From a virus (taxonomy: Duplodnaviria > Heunggongvirae > Uroviricota > Caudoviricetes): a stretch of 37,884 nt of DNA. Numbering within the stretch: position 1 is the first letter of the stretch; each line of letters begins with the position of its first letter. This document shows positions 4,266-37,884 of the stretch, in pieces. The stretch is from the IMG/VR virus record IMGVR_UViG_2654587996_000006, one strand, 5' to 3'. A program made the translations under genes and the position numbers. The notes below the pieces were generated by a model that saw nothing but the letters and a program-made list of their open reading frames with translations, searched no databases and had not been told where the DNA came from.

Positions 4266-4747
4266 GACAGCAGCCCTCCCACCGTTTTACTGATATCGCT
4301 TAATGCAGATGTTGCCGTGTCCTGCAGATTATTCAGCTGCGAACTGAGATCACCGAACATATCGGACAGGGATTCATCCACCCGTTTGAGCGACAGGGTG
4401 AACTCAATCCGGCGCGGCATACCGTCGCGGAAAAACTCCGTTTTAGTCTGATTCAGTCCCTCAATCACATACATGCCGTAAATCGTGCCGCTACCTTCAA
4501 TCAGGGGCCATGCTTTCCCCTGTTCTGCCATCTGCTCCAGAGCCAGCAACGACAGCCTGCCGCCTGTTATCTCCGGCATAAGAACACCGGAAAGCGTCAG
4601 CATGTCGTTGTCCGGTCCCAGAAACTGCGTGGACGGACGACGGTTTACCCGACTGTTTGCCGCATGTCGCCAGCTACGTTGATACTGCAGTTCCTGATAC
4701 GGCACGGTGCGCAGCATAAACACGTACAATCCCAGCACCATCATCAT
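4262..4747 (-). CDS. U: tail protein U
   Basis: 161-aa ORF, 4-nt overlap with D, immediately downstream of the tape measure gene; P2 order T-U-D. Confidence 0.8.
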   Translation of the reverse strand: MMMVLGLYVFMLRTVPYQELQYQRSWRHAANSRVNRRPSTQFLGPDNDMLTLSGVLMPEITGGRLSLLALEQMAEQGKAWPLIEGSGTIYGMYVIEGLNQTKTEFFRDGMPRRIEFTLSLKRVDESLSDMFGDLSSQLNNLQDTATSALSDISKTVGGLLS

Positions 4748-7700
4748 GCGTCGTATCCCCCCTGATCGCTGTAGTTACTCCTGGCCTTTGCCTTCAGCCT
4801 GCGTTCACGTTCATCAAGCTGGCGGGCCACCTCCCGCGCAATATCCTGCGCACTTTGTCCTGGCTGCGTCTGAATGATGATCTGCGTCGGTGCCTCAATC
4901 CGTTGAACGGGCGGCACAATGGCTGCACGACTCACCATCGCTTCGCCGCCTTTCGCGGGAAGTGCCAAAGGATGCAACGGTGGAAGCTCTGCAGGCGCGG
5001 CAGCAACGCCCATCATTCCGGCAACAACGGCAGCCAGTGAAGCTGTATTTCTCCGGCTGGTCACGTTTGCCGGGCCGTTAACAATTTCCGGCCCGTTTTC
5101 ACCGACGATGCCAAACTGCCCGCGCGGGATATAGCCGCCGCTGTCATACATCCCCGCAAAGCCATATCCCCATGACGGAAAACCACCCGATGGCATCATC
5201 ACTTTACCGTCAGCATTCACCGTCGCAGGTTGCTGATGCGTCACGCTTTCCGGCAGTTTCGCCTTTGCAGCCTCTTTACTGACAATGCCGAGTTTATCCA
5301 GCAACCAGGAAACACCGGATTTCAGGGAGTCCAGCGGATGCATAACCATATTCAGACCTTCCGCCAGTGCCTCCCCGAATCGTCGTCCCATTGCCGCTGC
5401 GCTCTGCAGTTCGGCAGAGGTCGACTTAACGGGCGTCAGCAGATCAGTAAACCAGCCCCACAGCGCCTGCACTTTGTCGCCAATCCACTGGAACACGGGC
5501 TTAAGCGGTTCGAACGCTGCACTAACGGGACCTGCCGCCGCTTTGAATCCTTCCACCACGCCACCGAGAAATGCGGTGATGGGTTGCCAGTATTTCCAGA
5601 CAACCAGCGCCACACCCGTCAGTGCAGTAACCACAAGACCTATCGGACTGAGCAGAGCACCTAACAGACCAGATACGGCATACAGAGCAACGCGCAGCAT
5701 CGTCAGCGGACCGGATGCCAGCACTCGTAGCACCGCGCCTGCGGCAGCCAGTCCACCGCGCAGTACCGCCAGAGGATTCATAAACATCACAGCAACAGCA
5801 CGTAAAGCGGATAATCCAGACCGCAATAGTGCAACCGGCGCACCTGCTACAGTTTTCAGGACATTTCCCGTCAGTGATGCCGTACGGCGCAAAGACGACA
5901 ACGGCGCAGTAAGTAAACCCGCTGCGTTACCCGATGAAGCAAGCCCGCGTCGCAGCACTGCCAGTGGAGCGCCAGCCAGCCAGAACAACGCGCTGCTGGT
6001 TCGTGTTACTGCTGCCGTAACGGAAGGTAACGTTTTGATGCCCAGCACAGAGAATCCCAGACGGATGACTGCCAGCGGCCCCAGCACTGCAGCCAGCGCC
6101 ACAGCCAAGGTGCCGAGGCCTACGGTAACCGCAGCCACAATAGCGGCTACTTTCATCAGTGTGCCCGTCAGTTCCGGGTTAGCTTCCACCCAGCGACGCA
6201 ACGCTCCCGTAACGCTTTTCACCATGTACAGAATATCCATCAGCGGCTGGCGCAACGTTTCGCCCAGGCTGCTGAAGGTATTCTGCGCTCCGGTTTTAAC
6301 CAGCAACCACTGAGCAGAAAGTGAGTCCTTGTTGATGTCGGATTCTTTCTGCATGGAACCGAGCGCATCATTGCCCGCTGTCAGTTTTAGCTGGCGCTGT
6401 AGTTCCGGCAGGTTGTTTGCCAGTTTCGCCGCGTCATCGCCAAACTCTTTACCAAACAACATGGTCATGGCAGACAGACGCTTGTCCTGCGGCAGTGCGT
6501 TCACCTTCTCCAGTACACGCTGGATAGTTCCCATCGCATCCTTCGTCATCTGCTTTTCAATCACTTCAGGATTGAGTTTCAGCAGATTCATCCCTTCAAA
6601 GAAACTCTTGCTTTGCATGGTGGCAATGGACAATTCACGCACCATCGCGTTTGCTGCACTGGCTGCAACCTCCGGCGCAGCGCCCAGTGTCAGAAAGGTG
6701 GAACCCAGTGCCGCCGCTTTACGATAATCCAGACGGTCAGCCACACCGCCCAGACGTTGCATCACATCAATGATGTCCGCCCCTTTCGACATGGCGTTAT
6801 CATCCAGATAGTTCAGCGCATCGCCGAGCTGTTCAATATTGCGAGTAGGTATTTTGTAGAGCTGGGCGATTTTCCCCAGACTTTCTGACAGTTCATCCGC
6901 TGGCAGCTCAAAGGCTGTTGCCGCCTTTGCTGCCGTACTGGCGAAGGCCAGCAGGTCACGTTTCTGGTCTTCCCAGCTGTCGTCAGGGTTTGCGACGTTC
7001 ATGCGCGCACCACCTTCAACCAGTGCAGCGAAGTCCACCGCCCCGTTTTCCATCGGCAACTGTTCGCTGGCAGCCTTGATGGCATCCTGCATTTCATAAA
7101 AACGTGCAGTACGGTTTCCATTATCGTCACGCAGACCATTGACCTGCTTTGCCACACCTTTCATGGCATCTTCCATGCTGGTATAGCTTTTTACTGCCGC
7201 CATCACTGGCGTCCCCATTGCCAGCCCTGCAGCCGTGGTAGTGGCTCCGGCTCCTGCAATACGATCGCGCACCTCCAGCGAACGGGCATAACTGGCACGC
7301 GCCGCATTCATCCTGCGCTGAGCTTCACCCAGTCGCTTCAGCCGCGCCTCCTGTTTCGACAATTCCTGGTTATAACGTGATGTTTCACGGGCTAAACGGG
7401 CAGTTGCTCCCGCATCATCTTTCGCAGAAATTCCCGCCCGGTACAGTTCTGCACGCACAAGCGCCGTTTGCTTCTGCAAATATTTTTGCTGTTCTTCCAG
7501 GCGTTGGACTGCCAGCGTTTGCCGACCTAAAGCCACAAGGTGCCGTTGTGATGGTTGTTCCATCGCCTCCAGCTCAGAGCTAAGCAAATTAGCCTTCTGT
7601 CTGGCATAGTTCAGCCTGTCGCCTAACTTCTTGTTATCAGCCTGCAGCTTGCGAAATTTTTCCAGGCTATTACCCGCCTGATTGAGTTGCTTTAATGCGT

Positions 7701-22129: not shown

Positions 22130-23896
22130 ATGAACACCACACTGACACCCGCAGATCTCGATCCCCGTCGGCAGGCCATGCTGCTGTACTTTCAGGGATA
22201 CCGCGTCGCCCGCATTGCTGAAATGCTGGGCGAGAAAGTTGCAACCGTTCACAGCTGGAAAAAACGCGACAAGTGGGGTGACTATGGGCCGCTGGATCAG
22301 ATGCAGCTCACCACCGCCGCACGCTACTGCCAGCTCATTATGAAGGAGCACAAAGAAGGGAAAGATTTCAAAGAAATTGACCTGCTGGCACGCCAGTCTG
22401 AGCGCCACGCGCGGATCGGCAAGTTTAACAATGGCGGCAACGAAGCCGACTTAAACCCTAACGTTGCCAACCGCAACAAAGGCCCACGTCGTCAGCCGGA
22501 AAAGAATGTTTTCACCGATGAACAGATTGAGAAACTGGAAGAAATCTTCCATTCCTCTATGTTCAACTACCAGCGCCACTGGTGGGAAGCCGGAAAAACC
22601 AACCGCATCCGCAACCTGCTGAAGTCACGCCAGATCGGCGCGACCTTTTACTTTGCCCGTGAAGCCCTGATTGACGCCCTGCTGACCGGGCGTAACCAGA
22701 TTTTCCTTTCTGCCAGCAAGGCTCAGGCCCACGTCTTTAAACAGTACATCATCGACTTTGCCAAAGAAGTGGAGGTGGAGCTGAAAGGCGATCCGATGGT
22801 GCTTCCTAACGGGGCCACGCTTTACTTCCTCGGCACCAATGCCCGCACGGCCCAGAGTTACCACGGCAACCTGTATCTGGATGAATATTTCTGGATACCG
22901 AAATTCCAGGAGCTGCGCAAAGTGGCTTCCGGTATGGCTATTCACAAAAAATGGCGACAAACCTATTTTTCCACGCCATCCAGTCTGACACACAGTGCTT
23001 ATCCGTTCTGGTCCGGTGCGCTGTTCAACCGTGGGCGCAACAAAGCCGATAAGGTGGACATCGACCTGTCCCACAGCAATCTGGCCCCCGGCCTGCTGTG
23101 CGCAGACGGGCAATACCGCCAGATAGTCACCGTGGAAGATGCGGTGCGCGGCGGCTGTAACCTGTTCGACCTCGACCAGCTACGCATGGAGTACAGCCCA
23201 GACGAATACCAGAACCTGCTGATGTGCGAGTTTGTGGACGATCTCGCGTCCGTGTTTCCGCTCAGCGAGCTGCAGGCGTGCATGGTGGACAGTTGGGAAG
23301 TCTGGACCGACTTTCATGCACTGGCGCTGCGCCCGTTTGGCTGGCGCGAAGTGTGGATCGGTTATGACCCGGCAAAAGGTACGCAAAACGGCGACAGCGC
23401 TGGATGCGTGGTGGTGGCACCGCCAGCCGTGCCGGGTGGTAAGTTCCGCATTCTTGAGCGTCACCAGTGGCGCGGGATGGACTTCCGCGCCCAGGCTGAC
23501 GCCATCAAAAAACTTACCGAACAGTACAACGTGACTTATATCGGTATCGACTCAACCGGCGTTGGTCACGGGGTTTACGAGAACGTGAAAGCGTTCTTTC
23601 CTGCCGTCCGGGAGTTTGTCTACAACCCCAACGTTAAAAACGCCCTGGTACTCAAGGCCTACGACATTATCAGCCACCGCCGTCTGGAGTTTGACGCCGG
23701 GCACACCGACATTGCGCAGTCATTCATGGCAATCCGTCGCGCAACCACCGCCAGTGGCAACCGCCCAACCTATGAAGCCAGCCGCAGCGAAGAAGCCAGC
23801 CACGCCGATCTGGCCTGGGCAACAATGCACGCACTGTTTAACGAACCACTGCAGGGCGAGTCCGCCAATACCAGTAATATTGTGGAGATTTTTTGA
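22130..23896 (+). CDS. P: terminase ATPase (large) subunit P
   Basis: 588 aa; P2 gpP-like; divergent from O. Confidence 0.9.
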   Translation: MNTTLTPADLDPRRQAMLLYFQGYRVARIAEMLGEKVATVHSWKKRDKWGDYGPLDQMQLTTAARYCQLIMKEHKEGKDFKEIDLLARQSERHARIGKFNNGGNEADLNPNVANRNKGPRRQPEKNVFTDEQIEKLEEIFHSSMFNYQRHWWEAGKTNRIRNLLKSRQIGATFYFAREALIDALLTGRNQIFLSASKAQAHVFKQYIIDFAKEVEVELKGDPMVLPNGATLYFLGTNARTAQSYHGNLYLDEYFWIPKFQELRKVASGMAIHKKWRQTYFSTPSSLTHSAYPFWSGALFNRGRNKADKVDIDLSHSNLAPGLLCADGQYRQIVTVEDAVRGGCNLFDLDQLRMEYSPDEYQNLLMCEFVDDLASVFPLSELQACMVDSWEVWTDFHALALRPFGWREVWIGYDPAKGTQNGDSAGCVVVAPPAVPGGKFRILERHQWRGMDFRAQADAIKKLTEQYNVTYIGIDSTGVGHGVYENVKAFFPAVREFVYNPNVKNALVLKAYDIISHRRLEFDAGHTDIAQSFMAIRRATTASGNRPTYEASRSEEASHADLAWATMHALFNEPLQGESANTSNIVEIF

Positions 23897-24924
23897 TGGG
23901 AAAGAGTAAGAAGAACCGCGCTGCGTCGACGAACCAGATCCAGCATAAAAGTCAAACTACAGCCGAAGCATTCAGCTTCGGTGATCCCGTTCCTGTTCTG
24001 GACCGCCGCGAACTACTGGACTATGTGGAATGCGTACAGACAGATCGCTGGTATGAGCCGCCAGTAAGCTTTGACGGACTGGCGCGCACCTTCCGCGCCG
24101 CCGTGCATCACAGTTCACCAATTGCGGTGAAATGCAACATTCTGACCAGTACCTACATCCCCCACCCGCTGCTCAGCCAGCAGGCTTTTTCACGTTTTGT
24201 GCAGGACTATCTGGTATTTGGTAACGCCTACCTGGAGAAACGCACGAACCGCTTCGGTGAAGTTATCGCCCTTGAGCCTGCTCTGGCAAAATACACCCGA
24301 CGCGGGTTAGACCTGGATACCTACTGGTTTGTGCAATACGGCATGACTACGCAGCCGTATCAGTTCACGAAAGGCAGCATCTTTCATCTGATGGAACCGG
24401 ATATCAACCAGGAGATCTACGGCCTGCCCGGTTATCTTTCTGCCATTCCGTCAGCCCTGCTCAACGAGTCCGCCACGTTGTTCCGCCGTAAGTATTACAT
24501 TAACGGCAGCCATGCAGGCTTCATCATGTACATGACCGATGCCGCGCAGAATCAGGAGGATGTGAACAACCTCCGCAACGCGATGAAAAGCGCCAAAGGT
24601 CCAGGCAACTTCCGCAACCTGTTTATGTACTCACCTAACGGCAAAAAAGACGGGCTTCAGATCATCCCATTGTCAGAAGTCGCGGCGAAGGATGAATTTC
24701 TGAATATCAAAAATGTCAGCCGCGATGACATGATGGCTGCGCACCGCGTACCGCCGCAAATGATGGGGCTTATGCCAAGTAATGTTGGGGGATTTGGGGA
24801 TGTGGAAAAAGCGAGTTTAGTGTTTGTTCGCAATGAGTTAATCCCCCTTCAAAAAAGATTTGAGGAGCTGAATGAATGGATAGAAGAAACAGTAATTAAG
24901 TTTAATGAATATAAATTAAATTGA
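23893..24924 (+). CDS. Q: portal protein Q
   Basis: 343 aa (P2 Q is about 344 aa); 4-nt overlap with P. Confidence 0.9.
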   Translation: MMGKSKKNRAASTNQIQHKSQTTAEAFSFGDPVPVLDRRELLDYVECVQTDRWYEPPVSFDGLARTFRAAVHHSSPIAVKCNILTSTYIPHPLLSQQAFSRFVQDYLVFGNAYLEKRTNRFGEVIALEPALAKYTRRGLDLDTYWFVQYGMTTQPYQFTKGSIFHLMEPDINQEIYGLPGYLSAIPSALLNESATLFRRKYYINGSHAGFIMYMTDAAQNQEDVNNLRNAMKSAKGPGNFRNLFMYSPNGKKDGLQIIPLSEVAAKDEFLNIKNVSRDDMMAAHRVPPQMMGLMPSNVGGFGDVEKASLVFVRNELIPLQKRFEELNEWIEETVIKFNEYKLN

Positions 24925-24930
24925 TTAATT

Positions 24931-24962
24931 CAGTAGTAGCAACTTTAAAGGCGCTACTACTG
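24931..24962. terminator. hairpin between convergent Q and the KAP NTPase gene
   Basis: cagtagtagc / gctactactg 10-bp stem in an AT-rich context. Confidence 0.4.
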
Positions 24963-24970
24963 AACAAACA

Positions 24971-26635
24971 CTATAAATTGAATTTATGCATTCTTAACTC
25001 ATTCAATTTACTCTCTCTAGAAATCTTCATTAAAGCAGCCTTAGCTTTTATAGAAACAGATCTCGTTTTCTCATTTACATTACCAATACGACTAAATTTG
25101 AGACAAGTAGCAACGTGGGATGTTAAATGATTCCCATGCAAACTTTTAAAATAATGATAATAATCATCTTCAGTAGCGCTACTTAATACTTCTATATCAT
25201 CATCATTCCAGCCATTTTTTCCACTGAGCGCATCCAACACCTCACCTAAAGTGCGCTTGGGTGAATCAGTTAGATACACACCTTTAAATTTCTCAATGAT
25301 TTCTGCATCTTTGATTGGTCTAAAAAGATAAAAATTATCCAGATCAAATAACTCTATTTCACTTCGTCTTTCTTGAATATAATACGTAATCATCTCAGAT
25401 GCCTTTGTATCTTCACCTAGTTCACGGAAGACCCCAACAAGGCTATCAAGATCATTAGGAGATACTTGAGTTACACAATCCATAAAGCACTTATAAAAAT
25501 GAGAAACAACTTCTTCTACATTATCATCAAAACTATTATGGAATAAATCCCATGCACTTCTAAATGAGTTTGACTTTTTATTTTCTAAAGCCTGTTTATT
25601 TATAATTTTTATTGCCTCATTAAACTCTGTCATATCTATATAACCATTCCTGACTAGCTTTGCTATTTTCCTATCCAGCTCATCAACCCTTGTAAAATTA
25701 TAGCTCAGTAAAATATCCTTCCATTTTTTTTCTTCTTCTGTTACATCCTTTTTGCCTATTGAGTAAATACTTTCCATAGATTCGAGGAAATCCAAAGAGG
25801 GAACATCCTTATCTGATTTAGAGCAATAATAGGCCCAATTCATTAATACAACCGTATGCAAAAATTGCATTTTAACTTCACTTTCGCACTCTTCAAAAGC
25901 TCGCCATGCATTTTCTACGTTTCGCTCTATTTTCTTTAAAACTCTAATATTTTTGATGCCTAACGAAATAGTATATTGTGCTAACGGCTTATGAAAATCC
26001 TTACTATTATCATATGCTATCTGTGCAGATTCACTGGGCGTAGGTGAAAAATGCAACTCAATGTCAATTACTTTTTCTTTAAACTTTTCATAATCAGCAA
26101 CTTCTTTAGTACCATCATTGAGTAAAAGTATAACCTTACATTTCTTTTGTTCTTTTAACAAAGAAATAAGACCTAATACATCTTTAAGTTCTAATGACGA
26201 TCCTTTACGCTCTAAATCATCTATGCAAATTAATGAATCTGACACAGACATAAATGACCATGCTTCTATTGCAGGAGCGGCAGACTTTATATACGGCAGC
26301 TCTTTCAATTTACTCCACGAACCTCGCCCCAATATTTCAAGCATACCTAATGTATTTTTTCTTAAACTATCTAAACTTGGCTCATGTCCTATGGAGTCTT
26401 TTGAAACTGCATTTTCAAAAATGGAATATTTTAATCTATCTAACGAAGATATACCGAAAAGAGAGACATAGGAATAATGCGAAGCAGAAATCATATTTTG
26501 ACACTTTGCTTCCAGAAGAAACTTATTCCAACTAAATGTCTTACCAACTCCCCACTCTCCTTTAATTGCCATAACCGAAGGGGCTGATTTAGAAACAAAG
26601 TTTAGAATTTGTTCTCGTACCAAGCTTAGCGACAT
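24971..26635 (-). CDS. KAP-family P-loop NTPase (cargo gene, candidate anti-phage factor)
   Basis: 554 aa; Walker A GEWGVGKTF matches the KAP signature GxWGxGKT; Walker B LICIDDLER; strong RBS AAGGAG; visibly AT-rich compared with the flanking phage genes. Confidence 0.8.
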   Translation of the reverse strand: MSLSLVREQILNFVSKSAPSVMAIKGEWGVGKTFSWNKFLLEAKCQNMISASHYSYVSLFGISSLDRLKYSIFENAVSKDSIGHEPSLDSLRKNTLGMLEILGRGSWSKLKELPYIKSAAPAIEAWSFMSVSDSLICIDDLERKGSSLELKDVLGLISLLKEQKKCKVILLLNDGTKEVADYEKFKEKVIDIELHFSPTPSESAQIAYDNSKDFHKPLAQYTISLGIKNIRVLKKIERNVENAWRAFEECESEVKMQFLHTVVLMNWAYYCSKSDKDVPSLDFLESMESIYSIGKKDVTEEEKKWKDILLSYNFTRVDELDRKIAKLVRNGYIDMTEFNEAIKIINKQALENKKSNSFRSAWDLFHNSFDDNVEEVVSHFYKCFMDCVTQVSPNDLDSLVGVFRELGEDTKASEMITYYIQERRSEIELFDLDNFYLFRPIKDAEIIEKFKGVYLTDSPKRTLGEVLDALSGKNGWNDDDIEVLSSATEDDYYHYFKSLHGNHLTSHVATCLKFSRIGNVNEKTRSVSIKAKAALMKISRESKLNELRMHKFNL

Positions 26636-26728
26636 AACTCACTCCTTGATTGCGAATGTTAATTATATATTTTACCAAAAATCTTAATCACCACCTATAG
26701 AAAGGTGAAAGATGGGTGCTGGCGCGCG

Positions 26729-26747
26729 CTCGTATCCCCGCCACGCC
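26729..26747 (-). other. candidate cos cohesive-end site
   Basis: Minus strand reads GGCGTGGCGGGGATACGAG; the first 13 nt match my recollection of the 186/P2 19-nt cohesive end (GGCGTGGCGGGGAAAGCAT); GC-rich island in an AT-rich region, in the expected place between Q and the replication genes. Confidence 0.4.
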
Positions 26748-26786
26748 TGCCCGCTTTGTGTAGTGGTTTTCATGCACCTGCATGAC

Positions 26787-26806
26787 ATAAGCAAAAGCCC
26801 GCCAGC
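26787..26806 (-). terminator. hairpin gcccgcca-gctc-tggcgggc with a short U-run on the minus strand
   Basis: 8-bp GC stem; minus-strand continuation is TTTTGCTTATG; lies between the HNH gene and the KAP gene. Confidence 0.4.
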
Positions 26807-26929
26807 TCTGGCGGGCATCAGCAAAAACGATCCTCAAACGATCATGCGATTTCATGCGGCATAGACATGCGTTGGCAAAAATGTACGAAATACTCAGCTT
26901 ACAGGAAATGGTCTTTTTCCAACCTCCAG

Positions 26930-27649
26930 TTAGCCAAAGCAGAAACCAATATTGCAATTTGAAACTCCACAGTTGTGAAATTGATGTGGACCGACTCTTA
27001 GCTTGTGTTCGTCTCCTACAATCCGAGTCCCCTTAACCAACATATCTAATCTTTCCACAATCAATCTTTCAGGCGCATCAACTTTAATAATTAAACGAGG
27101 ACCTTTCCTTTTTTCTATAATAGTTATTCTAGGACCAACAACCTGAACATCCCAATGCCTTGCACTACAAACCCACTCATTCTTAATTAATTCAAGATTA
27201 ACAATACCTTGACTATCGTAAAATTTACCCGAAATAAGAAAAGCATTATTTTCTTTTTCAATGGTTAACAATGGCTCATTTTGAAACATTATTGGTACAG
27301 TACAGGATTCAAATGTCGCACCACCAAATATTATTGTTGGATGCCTATCAGAAAAGTCCAATATATCGGCCACATTCCCTTTTTGTAAGGCTGCAGGAGA
27401 TTCCATTGCTTTAATTATTTTCTCTTTAGAGTAAAGACGTTTCGTTACTTTCGCATGGCACGTAGGACAAAGTAGTGCTATTGCATTTGGAGAGTGCTCC
27501 TTTGCATCAGCGTATGTGGGAATTACATGCTCATACTCAACAATGGGAGAAGCACAAACAACGCAACCAAAGCCACAGCGCTGCCTTACCTCCAGTTTTA
27601 CAGGTTCAGGAATTGTTCTAGATAACCCATGCTTGTTAATAGTTGTCAT
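26930..27649 (-). CDS. HNH endonuclease-motif protein (cargo gene)
   Basis: 239 aa; N-terminal CGFGCVVC ... EYEHVIP ... N ... CPTCH, the Cys4/His-Asn-His layout of HNH nucleases; AT-rich. Confidence 0.7.
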   Translation of the reverse strand: MTTINKHGLSRTIPEPVKLEVRQRCGFGCVVCASPIVEYEHVIPTYADAKEHSPNAIALLCPTCHAKVTKRLYSKEKIIKAMESPAALQKGNVADILDFSDRHPTIIFGGATFESCTVPIMFQNEPLLTIEKENNAFLISGKFYDSQGIVNLELIKNEWVCSARHWDVQVVGPRITIIEKRKGPRLIIKVDAPERLIVERLDMLVKGTRIVGDEHKLRVGPHQFHNCGVSNCNIGFCFG

Positions 27650-27771
27650 AACCTTACCTTAAAACTTCGAGAAACCTTTTATATATTGATACTATATCAA
27701 CTAACGCCTCGCACAGCTCGTTGTTCAACCTTGCTGACGCCAGAAGCAAGTTCAGACGCCAGCAACGTTTC

Positions 27772-28005
27772 TTAATGCAGCCAGCTGTCGTCTTCCCACA
27801 CCTTCTGCATAATTTTCATCACTTGTTTTCTTTCTTCGTCCAGTTGCAGTCCGGTCAGTTCCACACCGTTAGAGCTACCTTTACGGATACGAATTACCGT
27901 TTTGGGATACAAGGGGCGCAGATTGCGGTAAAGCTCGGATTCAAGGGCGTCCAGGGTAGACTGGCTAATCTTCTGCTCTTTATCGATCATTATTTCAATG
28001 CGCAT
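27772..28005 (-). CDS. DinI-like protein (Tum-type SOS antirepressor module?)
   Basis: ORF 27772-28077 trimmed to MRIEIMIDK (RBS AGGTGA); alignable with E. coli DinI (MRIEVTIAK...QETWE); downstream of a LexA box. Confidence 0.7.
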   Translation of the reverse strand: MRIEIMIDKEQKISQSTLDALESELYRNLRPLYPKTVIRIRKGSSNGVELTGLQLDEERKQVMKIMQKVWEDDSWLH

Positions 28006-28015
28006 AAAAGTCACC

Positions 28016-28204
28016 TCAACTGATGACATCCATTGAGCGGTTGTATTCGTGGGTTCTGATTTTTGCCATGAGTTCATCAGTCAATTCAGAAACCCACTGC
28101 AGAGCCAGCCCCTTCTCTTCATCACTACACTCACTAGCCGCGACAAGCTTAAGAAAAAAATCAATGCGCTGGAGCTTCAAAGACTCCAAAAAATAGTCCT
28201 GCAT
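28016..28204 (-). CDS. small protein (62 aa) co-transcribed with the DinI-like gene
   Basis: ORF 28016-28306 trimmed to MQDYFLESLK, which has the RBS GGAGGA; the LexA box lies about 40 bp upstream. Confidence 0.55.
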   Translation of the reverse strand: MQDYFLESLKLQRIDFFLKLVAASECSDEEKGLALQWVSELTDELMAKIRTHEYNRSMDVIS

Positions 28205-28245
28205 TTTTCCTCCTATGACACCACACACAATACTGTATGTATAAC

Positions 28246-28265
28246 CACTGTTTATATTTACAGTA
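28246..28265 (-). promoter_or_regulatory. LexA box (SOS operator) with promoter
   Basis: caCTGTttatatttACAGta, a perfect CTGT-N8-ACAG with an AT-rich spacer; on the minus strand it is preceded by TTTACA and TATACT promoter-like hexamers. Confidence 0.75.
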
Positions 28266-28357
28266 TATAATAATCTTACTGATGTAAAACGTTTTTTTAC
28301 GTTCATCAGCCTGATATGCCTGGTATTATTAAGAGCACGAATTGTTAACCCGCGTAA

Positions 28358-30772
28358 TTAATACAGGTTCCGCCACTTATCATCTTCCCGCAAACGCTGG
28401 TTCCGATAGAAGATACGCAGGCCTGCTCCTGACGGAATACTGCCGCCGCGAAGGAGTAAATCGACCTCTTTCTCGCTACCATCAAATCCTCTGGACTTCA
28501 GCTCATAGACGAGCTGCAGTCGCTGATGGTCTGTAATTCGCTGTTTGTAGTCTTTACGCCGTATCGGTTTAACCAGGCGTAGCCTTGCTGCCAGTTCCCG
28601 GCGCTCTTTTTTGCTCATACTGTGCAGGAAATCGTGCAACTCCTTGTCATCCATGCTGATAATATCCGTTCTGGGGTCCCCATCTGCTGATTTATCTTTC
28701 TCCTGTTGGTTCAAATTTTCAGCAAGGGGACAGTTATTGCCACGAGTCCAAGGGGCGCAAGCGCCCTGGTCGGCTACCGCCTCCTGAACGTCAACGGCTT
28801 TACGAACCATTTTCCACTTCACTGCATGAGTGCAGATCTTGCCCTCTGCAATGGGTGACCAGATGCCATAAATACGAATACCGTGATCGCCATAAGCGGT
28901 CGGCTCTTCGTTAATTTCATAAGCTGTTCTGATAAGGTGATATTTGCGGGGAACCAGTACGCCGCCCTGCTTCATGATGTAGGTGGCAAAACAGCCAGCA
29001 TCAGCGGCAGCCAGGATGGCATCAAGGCGCGGGTCATCCAGTACCGGCGCACCTGCTTTTTTGTCACCCTGTTGCCTTGCCGCCTGACCAGCCAGCAAGC
29101 GAAGTTCACGGTACGCCTGACGCCCCGGAATACCAAAGAAGCGGAACTGCTGAACACGATGCAGAGACGCCCAGGCATTAACGTATTCGGCGTTATCACG
29201 CAGGGATTTACCCGTTTCCTTGCTGATCTCGCCAGCCAGACCACGTCCGTCAATGTTCTTACTGATGTATTTCGCGATGTAGCTTGTCGGCGTTCCTTTG
29301 CGCGGGTTTATCAGCTCAGACTTAAAGCGTGGACCCGTGTTATTGCCCAGTTCCTCGCGGTCTTCACGGATGGCAAACTTACGCAACAATGCAGTAATGG
29401 CGCGGCGGTCTTTTTTGCGCATGAAACACATGAGATGCCAGTGCACAGTACCGTCATGGTGCGGCTCAGCCACCCGCACGCCATACCAGCGCAACCCGGC
29501 TTTGTGCATAGCCTTACGAAATGCAGCAAACATGCCGACCAGATAATCGCTGCTTTGTCTTACCGTCGCATTTGTCCAGGTTGGGTTTGGTCTGCCGTTA
29601 TTGAGCGTAGAATGGAAACGTGACGGACAGGTAATGGTGTAGAAAACGGCGCAGTCACCACGCATTTCCGCGATAAGCTCCAGACCTTTAACACAGGCCA
29701 TCATCTCATTGCGGCGGTGCGCCGGGTTGCTGCTGCTGGCGTTTACCACGTCTTCCATATCCAGCGTGTCGCCGTCTTCGTTCACCAGTTCATGAGAACG
29801 GAAAAACTCCAGCGACTTGCGGCGCTGCTCACGTTTATGCGTCACTGCTTCATAGCTGACATAGGGAGATGCTTTTTTGCTGACCAGGCAGACAGCACGC
29901 AACTGCTCTTCCCGCCATTCGCAACGTATCTTCCACAATTTTCGATACCACCAGTCGGCGCAAAGCATACGTGCCAGCGAACCCGGTATGAGTTCATAGG
30001 GCACGGGTTTGCGGCGGTTTCTTTTCCGACGGAGTTTCTCAAACGCAGGCGGGATAACATCCAGACGCAGGGTTTCCGCTGCCACCTTTTCCCATGTCTT
30101 GCGGATTTCTTCTGGCTTAACGTCATCGGAGGCATACAAATCACCACAAGCGGCCTCAAGACACATGCTCATATGCGCTGCTACCAGGGTGGACAGGCGT
30201 TTTACCTGATCCTGACTCATTTCAGGCAGGATCAGCAGGCCCTCAAGCCCTTGATGGCTTGCCATAAAACGGAAAGAAGCGGATAGCTGACTGTCGCGTA
30301 CATACTCCAGTCGCTCCAGACATGGCTTAATCGTCTCACGCAAATAGCGGGAATAAGCCTTTGGCCTGCCCAGGCTGCTGAAGTATTCGATACGTTGCAT
30401 CAGCGGCTTGCTGATGTGGGTGGGCTGGGCGCTGACGTCCGCCAGAATGACCATGTCCGGGTTAAAACGCTGCTGCTCATGCGCCAGCTTTGCCCGACTA
30501 ATGAGATTATCCTGCTCCATTTCGCGCTGGACAGGATCACGGGATTCATTAAAGAAATAACGCTCCCAGACCTGCTCACTCAGTGCATCGCGGCGCAGCT
30601 GTTCCTGCTCGTTATCGGCAGCGTACAGAGTGATCATGTTTGAAAGTGCAGACTCCGGCGCAACTTCCGCCGGGTCCAGATAAGGGTTAATGGCCTTTTT
30701 CGGGCCGTTCCATGAAAATGCTGCAGCGGCCTCGTTAAAGCCGCTAGAGTTGCTCATATCGTCATGACTCAT
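28358..30772 (-). CDS. A: replication initiation protein A (HUH rolling-circle endonuclease)
   Basis: 804 aa; HUH-type motif GTVHWHLM and tyrosine motif YIAKYISK; P2 gpA-like. Confidence 0.85.
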
Positions 30773-33069: not shown

Positions 33070-33528
33070 ATGACTAAACAAAGCTCCGAATACTTCCAAT
33101 TACACTACTGTTATTACCTTGAACTAATGACAGCAACGTTCCATGGTCGAGCTGATAAATTAATGACAGCAATCCAACTTATAAGCGGAACAGCTGTATT
33201 TGCTAATACAGGTCTGGAATGGTTGTTCGCTTTTCCTGTTGTTGTAATCGCAACAATCCAACTTGTATGGCAACCAGCTATTATTGCGGAACGAGCAAGC
33301 GTACAAAGCCGACAATATGGTGAGTTGCTTTACGCCGAGGATGAATTGTCTCCACAGTTCATTGCACAAAAATTGAAAGCTTTGCATCACTCTGACTCCA
33401 CAACATTCGGATCTTTGTTAAACCCTGCCTACAAAAGAGCTGCTATTGCCTGTGGTCGGGTTGACGATGTAAACCTCAGCTTCCAAGAAAAACTTTTCGC
33501 TTGGTTCGCAGGTTGTTTGCCACGTTAA
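33070..33528 (+). CDS. small predicted 2-TM membrane protein (cassette gene, antisense to the early operon)
   Basis: 152 aa with two hydrophobic helices (LMTAIQLISGTAVF, LFAFPVVVIATIQLVW); the only plus-strand ORF in this minus-strand operon; bracketed by the 60-bp direct repeats. Confidence 0.5.
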   Translation: MTKQSSEYFQLHYCYYLELMTATFHGRADKLMTAIQLISGTAVFANTGLEWLFAFPVVVIATIQLVWQPAIIAERASVQSRQYGELLYAEDELSPQFIAQKLKALHHSDSTTFGSLLNPAYKRAAIACGRVDDVNLSFQEKLFAWFAGCLPR

Positions 33529-34552: not shown

Positions 34553-35209
34553 GTGAAGGCTCCAAAAGAAGACTTCTGGTTCAACTTTAAGATCGCTTTT
34601 GGAATCTGTCAACGAATTTTGGATTTCTTTGGAGGATTTGTGGATTTCAATAGCGGCGGTAAGAAAGCCATAGAACGTTTGGTTGAAGCATACGGGTTCG
34701 GTACCCGTCAGGCTCTCTGTGATCATTTAGGTGTTTCTAAGAGCACCATGGCAACGCGTTATATGCGTGATATTTTTCCGGCAGATTGGGTAATCCAGTG
34801 CGCCCTTGAAACGGGTACCTCGCTTAATTGGCTAACAACAGGGCATGGTTCAAAGCAAGCATCAGCAAATACAAATACTATAGAAGTAGTAAAATATTTA
34901 TTGTCTGATGGAGCATTGCAGGAAGACGGTTTTTATATTTTTGATAAGGGATTTCTACCCTCTACGTTTAAAAAACCTTTTGTCATCACAGATAACAATT
35001 CTGAATTTATTTGTGATAAAGAATTTGATGATATACGTGATGGTAAATGGGTAATAAGTATTGATGGCGAAATAACAATCCGCGACATCACTCGTTTACC
35101 CGGTGGAAGAATTTTCGTTGAAGGTGGAAACAGAGCCTTCGAGTGCAAGATAGAAGATGTTGAAATAATTGGAAAAATTATAAGCTTAACAGTTAAGTAT
35201 GTTAGATAA
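34553..35209 (+). CDS. cI: CI immunity repressor (186 type)
   Basis: N-terminal HTH region (RLVEAYGF...ALETGTSLNWLTTGHG); the real start may be the in-frame GTG at 34640 (about 189 aa, preceded by GGAGG), which would leave a longer apl-cI switch region. Confidence 0.7.
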   Translation: MKAPKEDFWFNFKIAFGICQRILDFFGGFVDFNSGGKKAIERLVEAYGFGTRQALCDHLGVSKSTMATRYMRDIFPADWVIQCALETGTSLNWLTTGHGSKQASANTNTIEVVKYLLSDGALQEDGFYIFDKGFLPSTFKKPFVITDNNSEFICDKEFDDIRDGKWVISIDGEITIRDITRLPGGRIFVEGGNRAFECKIEDVEIIGKIISLTVKYVR

Positions 35210-35224
35210 TACCTGGAGGAAACT

Positions 35225-35407
35225 ATGCTTGGTAAGTTTTTTTTTGTGGTTTTATCATGCTCTTTGTTATTAAACCCACTAACTACCTATGCTAAAAATT
35301 ATCCTTGTTCTGGGAAAAAGGGAGGTGTCTCTCACTGTACCTCTGATGGAAAATTTGTTTGCAATGATGGAACCATCAGTAAATCCAAAAAAACATGCAT
35401 CAAATAA
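35225..35407 (+). CDS. small secreted Cys-rich protein (60 aa)
   Basis: Signal peptide [23 protein letters not shown] followed by a 37-residue mature part with 5 Cys; AT-rich; between cI and int. Confidence 0.5.
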
Positions 35408-35420
35408 TAAGGAAATATGA

Positions 35421-36752
35421 ATGAGCACAGATATAACTTTCGATATACGTGATGAATATAAAAGAAAAGCCATTGCAGAAAAAATAATAAGTTTGCTAGA
35501 GTCTAATATTCCTGTTTCACCTATGGTCATAGATGGGGACTGGGGGACTGGAAAAACAGAGTTTTCAAAAAAGTTAGCATCCTTAATTGAAATAAACTCG
35601 ACCAATCATAAAGTAGTTTATATAGATGCTTTTACTGAAGATCACAACGATGCTCCCATACTTACAATAATGGCCGCAATTGCAGCTCTATATAATAGCG
35701 ATGAAAAAAAGGAATTAATATCTAAGGCATTGCCAGCCCTCAGATTCGGACTTAAGACTGTACTCAAAGCTGGTGCTGGTTGGGTATTAAAACAAAATGC
35801 GGATGAAATTAATGAGGAATTTGAAGAGGTTATCAAAGACGCTGCAAATTCAGCTATCGATGGAACCATCGAGGCTCTGTTAGAAGATCATATCGAGGCA
35901 CAAAAGAACGTTCTTGCTCTAAAAGAAGTACTAACCAAATTAGCTGGAGAAAGTAAACTAACAATAATTATAGATGAGTTAGACAGATGTAAGCCTAGTT
36001 TTGCCATTTCTATTATTGAAAATATAAAACATGTTTTTGATATAAAAAACATTAACTTTTTATTAATTGCAAACACAACTCAACTAAAAGCATCCATAAA
36101 TCATATCTATGGCTCTTCTGTAGACTCCAACCGTTATCTTGACAAATTTATAAAATTTACATACAGCCTTCCTGTTACCTTTAAGGAAGATAATTATAAT
36201 GACACTTTAACTTCCAAAAATCATTGGATGATGCTATGTGAGCAATCTGAAAGGCTGACCGCTGCAGTAGAAGCCAGCGAAGATATTTTCTTACAGTTCA
36301 TTGAAAGTAGAAAATTATCATTACGTGAGGTTGAAACACTTGCTAGATATGTTGAAATATACCAACTACTATCAGGCGACAAAATTAGCAACAAATATAT
36401 TTATGGATATTGTTATTACAGGACTCTAGCGATAATAATCTACACTTTTAACCGAGAGTTAGCTCTCAACTTTCTTGAAGATAAAGTTGATGCTCAATCA
36501 ATCATGAAATTGTTTGGTTTATCTAAATTTTCATATCAAACAAGTGAATATAATGTAGATAATTATGAATATGCTATATTTGGAATAGTTTACAAATACT
36601 TATCTGAAAACTCATCTCTTTTACCTGCTGAGGAAAATATAAAAAGACAATGGGCAGAAATGAGTGAATACCATTTTTTAAAAGGTGGTGGCGGTATTGG
36701 TGAACCAACAAATATTGTGAAAGATGCTTTAAAAGTTTTTTTACTTCAGTGA
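35421..36752 (+). CDS. KAP-family P-loop NTPase, second copy (cargo gene, candidate anti-phage factor)
   Basis: 443 aa; Walker A IDGDWGTGKTEF matches the KAP signature; Walker B LTIIIDELDRCKP; AT-rich; lies between cI and int. Confidence 0.8.
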   Translation: MSTDITFDIRDEYKRKAIAEKIISLLESNIPVSPMVIDGDWGTGKTEFSKKLASLIEINSTNHKVVYIDAFTEDHNDAPILTIMAAIAALYNSDEKKELISKALPALRFGLKTVLKAGAGWVLKQNADEINEEFEEVIKDAANSAIDGTIEALLEDHIEAQKNVLALKEVLTKLAGESKLTIIIDELDRCKPSFAISIIENIKHVFDIKNINFLLIANTTQLKASINHIYGSSVDSNRYLDKFIKFTYSLPVTFKEDNYNDTLTSKNHWMMLCEQSERLTAAVEASEDIFLQFIESRKLSLREVETLARYVEIYQLLSGDKISNKYIYGYCYYRTLAIIIYTFNRELALNFLEDKVDAQSIMKLFGLSKFSYQTSEYNVDNYEYAIFGIVYKYLSENSSLLPAEENIKRQWAEMSEYHFLKGGGGIGEPTNIVKDALKVFLLQ

Positions 36753-36831
36753 TATGTATGGCTATACAAATTCATACATTGACACTGGTTATATATACAG
36801 TAAAAATGCTCTCCACTGGAGGGCATTTTTT

Positions 36832-37884
36832 ATGGCTGTACGAAAACTCACCACAGGAAAATGGCTTTGCGAATGTTACCCCGCCGGACGTAGTGGGCGT
36901 CGTGTGCGTAAACAATTCGCCACCAAAGGCGAAGCACTGGCTTTTGAGCGTCACACGATGGAAGAAACCGAAGCAAAGCCCTGGCTGGGTGAATCAGTGG
37001 ATCGTCGAACACTGAAAGACGTGGTTGAGCTATGGTTCAAACTACATGGTAAATCTCTGACTGCTGGGCAGCATGTCTATGACAAATTGCTGCTGATGGT
37101 TGACGCTCTGGGCAATCCCCTTGCAACTGATCTAACCTCTAAAATGTTTGCCCACTATCGAGATAAACGCCTGACAGGTGAGATCTACTTCAGCGAGAAA
37201 TGGAAGAAAGGAGCAAGCCCGGTCACCATTAACCTGGAGCAAAGCTATCTAAGTAGTGTTTTTAGCGAACTATCCCGCCTGGGCGAATGGTCGTATCCGA
37301 ACCCACTGGAGAACATGCGAAAATTCACCATCGCAGAAAAAGAGATGGCATGGCTTACCCATGAGCAGATTGTTGAATTACTGGCTGATTGCAAACGTCA
37401 GGACCCAATTCTGGCACTGGTAGTTAAGATATGCTTAAGCACAGGCGCACGCTGGCGAGAAGCCGTAAATCTTACCCGCTCACAGGTGACCAAATACCGA
37501 ATTACCTTTGTAAGAACGAAGGGGAAGAAAAACAGAAGCATCCCTATCAGTAAAGAGCTTTACGAAGAGATCATGGCGCTTGATGGGTTCAATTTCTTCA
37601 CAGACTGCTATTTTCAATTTTTATCCGTGATGGAAAAAACGTCTATCGTGCTCCCTCGCGGTCAACTCACACACGTTCTGCGCCATACGTTTGCGGCGCA
37701 CTTCATGATGTCGGGTGGAAACATTCTGGCCTTACAAAAAATTCTCGGACACCACGATATAAAAATGACTATGCGTTACGCACATCTGGCACCGGATCAT
37801 CTGGAAACGGCGCTCCGTTTCAATCCTCTGGCAACGCTGCCAAGTGGCGACAAAGTGGCGGCAGCGGTTGGCATTACCCCGTAA
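36832..37884 (+). CDS. int: tyrosine integrase
   Basis: ORF 36754-37884 trimmed to MAVRKLTTGKW (RBS GGAGGG); C-terminal catalytic region ...HVLRHTFAAHFMMSGG...HHDIKMTMRYAHL with the R/H/R/Y residues. Confidence 0.85.
   Translation: MAVRKLTTGKWLCECYPAGRSGRRVRKQFATKGEALAFERHTMEETEAKPWLGESVDRRTLKDVVELWFKLHGKSLTAGQHVYDKLLLMVDALGNPLATDLTSKMFAHYRDKRLTGEIYFSEKWKKGASPVTINLEQSYLSSVFSELSRLGEWSYPNPLENMRKFTIAEKEMAWLTHEQIVELLADCKRQDPILALVVKICLSTGARWREAVNLTRSQVTKYRITFVRTKGKKNRSIPISKELYEEIMALDGFNFFTDCYFQFLSVMEKTSIVLPRGQLTHVLRHTFAAHFMMSGGNILALQKILGHHDIKMTMRYAHLAPDHLETALRFNPLATLPSGDKVAAAVGITP

Follow-up and report, generated by a model that had tools for sequence, protein, structure and literature searches.

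A KAP-family NTPase gene, a candidate single-gene defence, and an independent YdcA-family gene share an exchangeable cargo slot between cI and int in a 186-like Escherichia coli prophage

The DNA analyzed here (the window; 37,884 nucleotides, IMG/VR record IMGVR_UViG_2654587996_000006) carries a 186-like prophage whose integrase end adjoins rcdA/ybjJ in E. coli, as seen from the RefSeq context. Toward that end, four plus-strand open reading frames follow one another in the order cI, a 60-amino acid ORF, a gene for a 443-amino acid KAP-family NTPase, and int, all four located where an earlier reading made from the sequence only had placed them (Table 1). The gap between cI and the 60-amino acid ORF is 15 nt, that between this ORF and the KAP gene is 13 nt, and the two ORFs are preceded by Shine-Dalgarno sequences GGAGGA (strong) and AAGGA, respectively. 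Because both give profile matches and have homologues (1,373 for the KAP protein), these cargo ORFs are real genes and not chance reading frames. Note that cI, when defined simply as an open reading frame, extends upstream of its RefSeq start and spans 34553-35209.

Table 1. Features of the cI–int region and of the second KAP locus in the window.
Feature	Coordinates	Strand	Evidence
cI repressor (186-type)	34640..35209	+	Pfam Phage_CI_repr 3.3e-31, Phage_CI_C 1.6e-28; RefSeq start 34640
YdcA-family small secreted protein	35225..35407	+	NF007463 108.8 bits; phrog_6000 2e-32; PF27300 on homologues
KAP-family P-loop NTPase, 443 aa, soluble, PADLOC candidate PDC-S20	35421..36752	+	Pfam and PADLOC profiles
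KAP cassette, approximate limits relative to the commoner cI-YdcA-int form	35405..36740	+	Alignment borders
Conserved int leader, right border of slot	36771..36831	+	97% identity with L002, L003, L008
Terminator/attenuator-like A-tract, hairpin, U-tract	36801..36831	+	RNA fold -21.6 kcal/mol
Tyrosine integrase (int), end of prophage	36832..37884	+	Pfam Int_N 3.8e-32, Phage_integrase 1.1e-21; RefSeq start 36832
Second KAP-type NTPase, 554 aa, PADLOC candidate PDC-S49	24971..26635	-	Pfam KAP_NTPase 2.9e-5
HNH-motif protein, 239 aa	26930..27649	-	Pfam HNH 2.4e-5; phrog_6544 2.5e-111

In phage 186, cI stops and int starts at one shared position (22433). Because cI abuts int in that phage, the 1.6 kb that separates the two genes in the window is truly extra. 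The initial description of this stretch as an AT-rich insert was therefore right about its presence relative to 186 and about its composition, with a GC content of 32.9% across positions 35210-36831 compared with 50.3% over the whole window and 48.7% in int, but it placed the left edge too far to the right. The AT-rich variable tract begins within cI itself, at approximately position 34850. The N-terminal, DNA-binding half of cI (GC 0.48) is conserved with relatives, homology ends at 34816-34848, and the C-terminal half beyond it is AT-rich (GC 0.33) and diverged.

Assignment of the 443-residue protein to the KAP family, originally based on motifs, survives a profile search. Pfam PF07693 (gathering score 20) is matched with 182.5 bits and an E value of 1.4e-53 over profile positions 1-291 of 293. 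Both of the motifs reported earlier, VIDGDWGTGKT and IIIDELDRC, were found, with the Walker A sequence GDWGTGKT at residues 39-46 and Walker B at residues 182-190, and 50 homologues (40-71% identity) share G39, W41, G42, G44, K45, D185, E186, L187, D188, R189, and C190 without exception. The family has already been catalogued, because the protein matches PADLOC profile PDLC04956 (PDC-S20) from end to end (2.4e-171, 569 bits, residues 1-441 on profile positions 1-447 of 450). Three further PDC-S20 subtypes are also matched in the PADLOC profile search. Thus, the KAP protein of the window is a full-length member of PDC-S20 with no structural difference from it. In PADLOC-DB v2, PDC stands for 'phage defence candidate', which is a computational designation only, and our literature search for PDC-S20, WP_000102108, and WP_001350185 found no paper naming them and no assay.

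The KAP protein is composed of an NTPase core (residues ~1-260) and a helical domain (residues 261-443) whose last 120 residues are hypervariable. A helical insert occupies residues 93-175, and its conserved portion (93-151) is modelled with low confidence. Transmembrane helices between Walker A and Walker B are typical of many KAP proteins, although they are not universal. A transmembrane insert in the window protein was considered and rejected on a hydropathy scan only, in which the highest Kyte-Doolittle mean over 19 residues is 0.93 and no transmembrane segment is predicted. We also recognized no effector domain (nuclease, transmembrane, TIR, or similar) in the protein. Among seven sampled genomic contexts, the neighbouring genes differ and no conserved partner gene was found. 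The sole recurrent neighbour is the YdcA-family gene, which is dispensable, and the sampled contexts fit a system made up of one gene. The KAP profile gave no match to the sequences of solved structures, and structural neighbours come from fold comparison only. By this comparison, the nearest solved folds are the defence ATPases RdrA and BrxC, and the fold also resembles those of the DNA-handling AAA+ proteins ORC/Cdc6, DnaA, and TnsC. Weaker sequence matches limited to the NTPase domain were obtained with PifA (7e-16) and QatA (1.5e-11).

The 60-residue product had been described as a protein with a signal peptide and five cysteines, which agrees with our analysis: a 23-residue signal peptide containing one cysteine is followed by a 37-residue basic mature peptide containing the other four. 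Its score exceeds the curated NCBIfam cut-off (93 bits) for the subfamily of E. coli YdcA (PRK10040 / PF27300). In the alignment, C28, C38, C46, and C58 show little or no variation, and a cleavage site resembling A-x-A is conserved. From genus to genus the mature peptide hardly changes, whereas the signal peptides are variable, a pattern pointing to very strong purifying selection on the mature part. A lipoprotein reading was rejected, given that Cys12 is too near the N-terminus and that relatives carry I or V at position -1; it is also countered by a signal-peptidase-I site that the alignment reveals to be conserved, with (Y/F/M)A before and K/R-NYPC after the point of cleavage. In 186-like prophages of Escherichia, Klebsiella, and Yersinia, as well as in Haemophilus phage HP2, the first gene 3' of cI is habitually YdcA, and it adjoins cI in 482 of 5,426 complete E. 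coli genomes (~9%). The literature on E. coli ydcA mentions the gene in lists only.

A second KAP-type NTPase is encoded elsewhere in the window, in the gpA-portal (old/tin) hotspot between a portal-like ORF (23893-24924) and gpA (28358-30772). It scores 23.9 bits against the Pfam cut-off of 20 and matches PDC-S49 (1.1e-29) and phrog_4740 (1.2e-131). The HNH-motif protein lies upstream of it in the same orientation and in the same hotspot. A plus-strand reading of this second gene was discarded because the interval 24971-26635 gives 42 stops on that strand. The two KAP proteins are as divergent as had been proposed, aligning with each other only at Walker A and falling into separate PADLOC candidate families (PDC-S20 and PDC-S49).

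The interval between cI and int had been proposed to be a cargo position, and comparison with related phages bears this out. Empty in phage 186, the interval ranges from 385 to 2957 nt across 80 IMG/VR viral loci chosen for an integrase 99-100% identical to that of the window, and it holds at least nine different contents. YdcA is the only gene between cI and int in 47 of these loci. PADLOC profiles identify Old (1.4e-234), PD-Lambda-1 (7.3e-120), PDC-M11A (9.6e-134), or a KAP protein of a second PDC-S20 subtype (6.2e-78) in others, and further loci carry unknown genes. PD-Lambda-1 occupies the slot in vB_EcoM-813R9 and in Klebsiella phage KP12; it has a DUF4041 plus T5orf172 architecture, and a protein of this architecture is a validated defence (PMC9519451). 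The earlier notion that the small ORF and the KAP gene form a single insert does not hold, as they are separable modules and the commonest state is cI followed by a YdcA-like ORF alone.

The borders of the KAP cassette can be placed closely. Alignment with locus L026 fades out at 35393-35404 and picks up again at 36741-36772, and megablast matches to genomes that carry only YdcA end at query position 199, which corresponds to window position 35393. The cassette is thus little more than the ribosome-binding site and the ORF. When the spacer of the YdcA-only form was considered as a possible scar of KAP deletion, the only match found between it and the KAP sequence was 18 nt long, at the KAP stop. 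On the right, the int leader is common to prophages with different cargo, with the shared sequence starting at 36771/36772. This leader includes a promoter-like TTGACA-17-AAAAAT (36779-36807) and ends, directly 5' of the int ATG, in a hairpin with a 7-bp stem (fold z -5.85) whose 3' arm contains the int Shine-Dalgarno sequence. Other int leader variants keep the hairpin and the U-run with differing stem sequences. Variant lengths also differ, and RNAalifold consequently mis-registers the hairpin, making the single-sequence fold the stronger evidence. From its sequence, the element looks like a terminator or attenuator between cargo and int.

These data establish the cI–int interval of E. coli 186-like prophages as an exchangeable cargo slot and a defence hotspot. 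It resembles other P2-family hotspots (old/tin between gpA and portal; Z/fun; cI–int of Vibrio K139-like phages) in that prophages which are otherwise nearly identical carry different, mostly AT-rich defence genes at the same conserved interval. It differs from them in being located in E. coli 186-like phages at rcdA/ybjJ, in its defined borders, and in having YdcA as its commonest occupant. We found no prior description of this E. coli slot with its borders and YdcA in the literature on P2-family hotspots. Nevertheless, the slot is less novel than first judged, because the KAP family already exists as PDC-S20 in PADLOC and because P2-type phages have previously been described to carry cargo in the cI–int interval or in that from int to gpA (PMC9122126; preprint 10.64898/2026.02.27.708500).

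Single-protein defence by KAP NTPases has precedents. EF_KAP and three others depend on Walker B (PMC12632615), and Reve, a single-protein KAP NTPase, acts as a defence in P4 hotspots (preprint 10.64898/2026.02.27.708500). The protein in the window shares with EF_KAP, Reve, Tmn, and PifA a KAP-type P-loop NTPase core and carriage on mobile elements. Compared by listed signals, the likeness to Reve extends to PF07693, PF13401, and Foldseek ORC matches, all of which appear in the Reve supplement as they do for the window protein. In contrast, EF_KAP and Tmn have transmembrane helices and EF_KAP has a 322-residue C-terminal region, whereas the window protein is soluble and has 443 residues in total. 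PifA, which is responsible for T7 exclusion by the F plasmid, is similar only in the NTPase core (residues 11-252 on profile positions 17-255 of 720, E value 7.2e-16), and with PifA being ~720 residues long there is no full-length similarity.

RdrA (RADAR), BrxC (BREX), and QatA (Qat) are 540-850-residue subunits of multi-gene systems and share 8-15% sequence identity with the window protein. Their partners are the RdrB deaminase, BrxB/PglZ and others, and QatBCD, respectively, and we found no RdrB, BrxB/PglZ, or QatBCD gene near the KAP gene of the window. The protein does not belong to Qat, since it scores 41.3 bits against the QatA NCBIfam cut-off of 600 and its neighbours are a ydcA-like gene and int. 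Nor does it belong to RADAR, as the locus has no RdrA of ~800 residues with an adjacent RdrB adenosine deaminase.

Our preferred reading, which we hold with moderate confidence, is that the slot carries a lysogen-expressed single-gene NTPase defence together with an unrelated YdcA gene of the lysogenic operon. The cargo genes are oriented with cI and tightly spaced, as originally noted, and no convincing terminator precedes the KAP stop; because of these features, transcription of the cargo with cI in a lysogen is the natural inference. Indeed, no credible terminator was seen in the cargo until the hairpin at 36801-36831. The slot would therefore lie within the lysogenic operon, its left border falling in or after the variable C-terminal domain of cI and its right border being the conserved 60-nt int leader that closes in the terminator-like hairpin. 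The YdcA gene, the usual resident, would yield a basic, disulfide-bonded periplasmic peptide of ~37 residues, which is probably a lysogenic-conversion factor active at the envelope. The KAP protein, produced constitutively with cI in the lysogen, would most likely provide single-gene defence against phage. Its conserved core could be a switch of the AAA+/STAND type that oligomerises, driven by NTP, like those of RdrA, BrxC, and ORC/Cdc6, and its hypervariable C-terminal helical domain may recognize a component of a superinfecting phage. Once activated, the KAP protein would block replication of that phage. Note that the support for defence that comes from location and fold similarity is circumstantial.

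Instead of defending, the KAP protein might serve the prophage or its host by controlling lysogeny or induction, by excluding plasmids or conjugation, or as a moron that influences host physiology. Such a role would fit the lack of an effector domain and the likeness to DNA-handling proteins noted above. Our literature search found no defence experiment for PDC-S20, and PMC12632615 quotes the view that excluding T7 is not what PifA primarily does. Nevertheless, we regard it as unlikely. More than 1,100 genomes carry the int or cI region, whereas only 34 carry KAP. Because the gene is missing from most otherwise near-identical prophages, it is dispensable to the phage life cycle. Moreover, other prophages have validated defence genes in this slot in place of KAP, the KAP C-terminus is hypervariable in the manner typical of arms-race proteins, and its best structural neighbours are defence ATPases.

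A more speculative proposal concerns the YdcA peptide. The YdcA family profile matches Legionella Dis2 (Lpg0823; E value 2.2e-4), a two-lobed component of the Dot/Icm outer-membrane cap (PMC8486379), and the structural model superposes on one Dis2 lobe (probability 0.97, 40% identity, 1.7 Å). Both are disulfide-rich envelope proteins with signal peptides, but the phage protein is single-lobed and has no T4SS context. Because of this kinship, the near-invariant mature sequence, and the habitual position after cI, the peptide could be a lysogenic-conversion factor, widespread but so far unrecognised, that binds to some conserved structure of the envelope, possibly to block DNA entry by superinfecting phages or conjugation, with the KAP protein as a second, independent layer. 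We consider this proposal doubtful.

It is also improbable that the YdcA peptide and the KAP protein constitute one two-gene system that was inserted together, for example as an envelope sensor or effector with a cytoplasmic NTPase. The genes are close neighbours on the same strand, and the order cI-YdcA-KAP occurs in three diverged modules: besides the window, it is seen in an E. coli module of the P0001 type, with a KAP protein at 71% identity, and in Klebsiella L106, with one at 55%. This recurrence leaves a functional link a low probability. However, KAP is present in 34 of 5,426 complete E. coli genomes, and 448 of the 482 with YdcA next to cI lack it, as do the 47 YdcA-only viral loci. 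YdcA likewise directly follows cI without KAP in Yersinia and Haemophilus phage HP2, and in Hafnia it lies within the cI–int interval, again without KAP, with one gene between cI and YdcA. Conversely, KAP homologues occupy the slot in E. coli, Serratia, and Klebsiella, in some cases without YdcA; others without YdcA reside in lambdoid prophages of Cronobacter and Citrobacter, at the Q-lysis moron site, and another is found in a Photobacterium island. KAP proteins that are 72% identical to each other differ in whether YdcA accompanies them. The mature YdcA peptide remains ~90% conserved while the KAP proteins diverge to 55%, and thus the two have not co-evolved. Finally, the cassette borders enclose KAP only, and the two products belong to different compartments. 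The YdcA gene and the KAP gene are therefore independent modules in one slot.

That the cargo is carried along as an inert leftover, decaying or not expressed and without current function, is suggested by its low GC content and patchy distribution but is highly improbable, because both ORFs are intact with good ribosome-binding sites, KAP is full length and at least 99% identical in all 34 E. coli genomes that carry it, its catalytic motifs are invariant among the diverged homologues, and mature YdcA appears so strongly constrained.

Under our preferred reading of a single-gene NTPase defence beside an unrelated YdcA gene, the window offers a well-delimited case for candidate family PDC-S20, namely a minimal KAP NTPase, soluble and lacking any obvious effector, in the setting where it would naturally be expressed. 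Because the same slot holds validated systems, isogenic prophages that differ only in slot content exist naturally and are directly comparable. The YdcA peptide deserves to be flagged as a putative lysogen-expressed envelope protein encoded beside cI in ~9% of complete E. coli genomes, and the cI–int slot of E. coli 186-like phages can be added to the defence hotspots with defined borders. If the KAP protein does defend, then phage would be stopped by nothing more than an AAA+/STAND-like NTPase whose C-terminal domain varies, without a fused effector.

The region from cI to the end of the window consists of four consecutive ORFs on the + strand (34553-37884), with the CII gene lying upstream of cI on the opposite strand. 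Only 15 nt separate cI from the small ORF and 13 nt separate the small ORF from the KAP gene, and good ribosome-binding sites precede both cargo ORFs. RefSeq calls cI a 'phage repressor protein CI', the small ORF a 'hypothetical protein' or 'YdcA family protein', and the 443-aa ORF a 'KAP family NTPase'. Because the cI stop and int start of phage 186 coincide at one shared position, 1.6 kb is extra here relative to the type phage. At 32.9% GC, this interval (35210-36831) lies below both the window (50.3%) and int (48.7%), which bears out the AT-rich insert proposed in the sequence-only reading. Its extent requires correction, since AT-rich, diverged DNA starts already inside cI at ~34850. The portion of cI encoding the C-terminal (oligomerisation) domain (34816-35209) is 33% GC and has diverged from relatives sharing a 90% identical N-terminal DNA-binding half, and therefore the slot's left recombination border falls within cI. 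This domain appears to travel along with the cargo. The window sequence is identical to a prophage adjoining rcdA/ybjJ in E. coli CI5, NC101, NGF1, and others. Separately, a 152-aa ORF that is flanked by two Fil-family genes and faces the opposite direction may be a further early-region moron.

Features of the window discussed in the text
Feature	Coordinates	Strand	Annotation
554-aa KAP-like NTPase	24971-26635	-	PADLOC PDC-S49 (1e-29), phrog_4740
239-aa HNH protein	gpA-portal hotspot		phrog_6544
DinI-like ORF	27772-28077	-	gpA-portal hotspot
152-aa ORF	33070-33528	+	no Pfam match; RefSeq hypothetical
CII gene	upstream of cI	opposite	Pfam
cI	ORF from 34553, RefSeq start 34640, stop 35209	+	Pfam Phage_CI_repr, Phage_CI_C
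Small ORF (YdcA-like), 60 aa	35225-35407	+	ORF
KAP, 443 aa	35421-36752	+	ORF
int leader, 60 nt	36771-36831		conserved; TTGACA-17-AAAAAT (-35/-10-like)
Leader hairpin	36801-36831		A-tract, 7-bp hairpin, U-tract
int	36832-37884	+	Pfam Int_N, Phage_integrase

The distance from cI stop to int start was measured in 80 IMG/VR contigs whose integrases are 99-100% identical, and the contents of the interval were found to differ among them. A YdcA-like ORF alone occupies the interval in 47 loci (385-395 nt), two loci have the same arrangement as the window (1622 nt), 30 carry various other contents (1068-2957 nt), and one gave no cI match. The contents found in those 30 include Old (PADLOC, 1.4e-234), PD-Lambda-1, a 505-aa KAP of another subtype of the PADLOC candidate family PDC-S20 (6.2e-78), PDC-M11A inside a three-gene set (9.6e-134), single genes of unknown kind from two families, a two-gene set of unknown kind, and, at one locus, a likely mobile-element insertion, which is the sole exception to their AT-richness. 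Between slot types, homology stops inside cI (~34816-34848) and restarts sharply at 36771/36772, ~60 nt ahead of the int ATG. In vB_EcoM-813R9 and Klebsiella KP12, whose integrases are 97% identical, KAP is replaced by a 558-aa protein that matches PD-Lambda-1 and has a membrane-anchored DUF4041 coiled-coil plus nuclease-like architecture, which is represented among validated systems (Vassallo et al., PMC9519451). The cI-int interval is thus a genuine defence hotspot. The concept is not new: such a hotspot has been described in Vibrio K139-like P2 relatives (Rousset et al., PMC9122126), and 8% of P2 defence systems sit between integrase and primase (10.64898/2026.02.27.708500, hereafter the 2026 preprint).

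The small ORF and KAP had been regarded as a single insert, but their distributions separate them. The cI-linked YdcA-like gene is present in 482 of 5,426 complete E. coli genomes, whereas the KAP allele is present in 34, each time at least 99% identical. The segment by which the window exceeds the YdcA-only form begins in the last small-ORF codons (~35393-35404), ends around the KAP stop (36741-36772), and amounts to little more than the KAP ORF and its ribosome-binding site. Among KAP homologues, one from Serratia (49% identical) and one from E. coli (55%) sit in the slot with no YdcA, and YdcA accompanies those of Klebsiella (55%) and of another E. coli module (71%); the Klebsiella protein and the YdcA-less E. 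coli protein are 72% identical to each other. Others reside in a Photobacterium island and in lambdoid prophages of Cronobacter and Citrobacter, where they are encoded on the opposite strand with the Q antiterminator on one side and the lysis genes on the other. Where KAPs diverge to 55%, the mature YdcA peptide remains ~90% identical. These observations argue for two independent cargo genes, in agreement with the PADLOC 'single-gene' label. A functional link between peptide and NTPase might be read from the recurrence of the YdcA-KAP order in three diverged modules, but we consider it improbable given the unequal genome counts and the existence of KAPs that lack a YdcA neighbor.

KAP matches Pfam KAP_NTPase (1.4e-53), confirming the family assignment, and matches PDC-S20 over its whole length (2.4e-171); matches to PifA and QatA are confined to the NTPase domain. 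The motifs noted earlier, and the cysteine count given for the small protein, are correct. Walker A and Walker B (DELDRC) are invariant in 50 homologues (40-71% identity), whose identity to KAP averages ~60% over the NTPase core and falls to 21-28% in the C-terminal 120 residues. KAP has no predicted transmembrane segment, and a PDB search revealed no sequence relatives. An AlphaFold model built on the homologue alignment is confident overall (pLDDT 81, pTM 0.76), with the exception of a conserved helical insert (residues 109-151). Taken together, these features make KAP a compact, soluble NTPase of the AAA+/STAND-like type; its helical C-terminal domain is variable, and the protein contains no recognisable effector module. 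Protein clustering at 90% identity files KAP under a 350-aa integrase representative and its listed members, evidently a clustering artefact, and because of this misfiling the first homologue search gave nothing above 71% identity.

Unrelated KAPs do occupy two cargo positions of the prophage, as had been proposed, with the correction that the second lies on the minus strand; this is simply what results when two hotspots each draw on a large pool of NTPase-based candidates. The second KAP's location, the gpA-portal (old/tin) hotspot (24925-28357), is 37% GC, and the 554-aa NTPase may pair with the HNH protein as a two-gene candidate system. A further KAP-like ORF (>518 aa, faint Pfam match) occurs at 4651-6177 of a Yersinia prophage (L114), beyond int and before the prophage end, a position that recalls the minor int-att hotspot of the 2026 preprint.

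Downstream of the cI stop, no credible + strand terminator was found before the end of KAP. The predicted hairpin immediately 5' of the int ATG (-21.6 kcal/mol, z -5.85) holds the int Shine-Dalgarno within its 3' arm; the stem sequence differs in other leader variants and prophage lineages, which retain a hairpin and U-run all the same. This structure is likely a terminator or attenuator separating the cargo slot from int. Given its position and the lack of an earlier terminator, slot cargo would be transcribed together with cI in a lysogen, and read-through into int, or int translation, would be damped.

Scored against NCBIfam NF007463, which describes a subfamily of E. coli YdcA, the small protein clears the curated threshold, and its homologues carry PF27300. 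Their signal peptides vary, the cleavage site is conserved, and the mature peptide is near-invariant, with four conserved Cys and net positive charge. Such extreme conservation suggests that the peptide meets a conserved host target rather than taking part in an arms-race interaction. Genes of this type are found in several temperate phages and as chromosomal genes outside phages. Haemophilus phages HP2 (NC_003315, 2486-2668, minus strand) and S2 each carry an unannotated 60-aa YdcA-family ORF whose ATG overlaps the cI stop. In both, a secreted OB-fold protein and int come next; in HP2 the secreted protein is orf1(S), whose OB fold is tRNA_anti-like. HP2 is a distant P2-family member, and its ORF holds the after-cI position seen in the window. 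In 186-like prophages, the gene lies within the cI-int interval directly after cI in Yersinia and behind a 143-aa ORF in Hafnia. The AF2 model is confident over the mature part. Only one meaningful relative emerged, in structure as in sequence: the repeated lobe of Legionella Dis2 (Lpg0823), with a Foldseek probability of 0.97 at 40% identity and 1.7 A, and E 2.2e-4 for the PF27300 profile against Dis2. Dis2 is a disulfide-pinned, outer-membrane-proximal cap component of the Dot/Icm T4SS, reported by its authors to have no structural relatives (PMC8486379).

The data show that KAP belongs to the KAP and PDC-S20 families, that it is housed in a defence hotspot, and that it is independent of YdcA. 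Beyond this we favor, with some reserve, a reading in which KAP is a lysogen-expressed NTPase defence. KAP would act as a switch that oligomerises in an NTP-dependent way, with the variable C-terminal domain sensing superinfecting phage. This proposal draws support from single-protein KAP NTPases that defend in a Walker-B-dependent manner (PMC12632615) and from Reve, a KAP-only system active from P4 hotspots (2026 preprint). What the mechanism chiefly lacks is an effector domain. Because KAP resembles ORC/Cdc6 and TnsC, it might sequester or remodel a phage replication or packaging complex; alternatively, it might use a host partner. KAP adds a new member to a catalogued candidate family, in an already known kind of hotspot. 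More unusual are the finding that YdcA is the slot's default occupant, its relationship to Dis2, and the hairpin before int.
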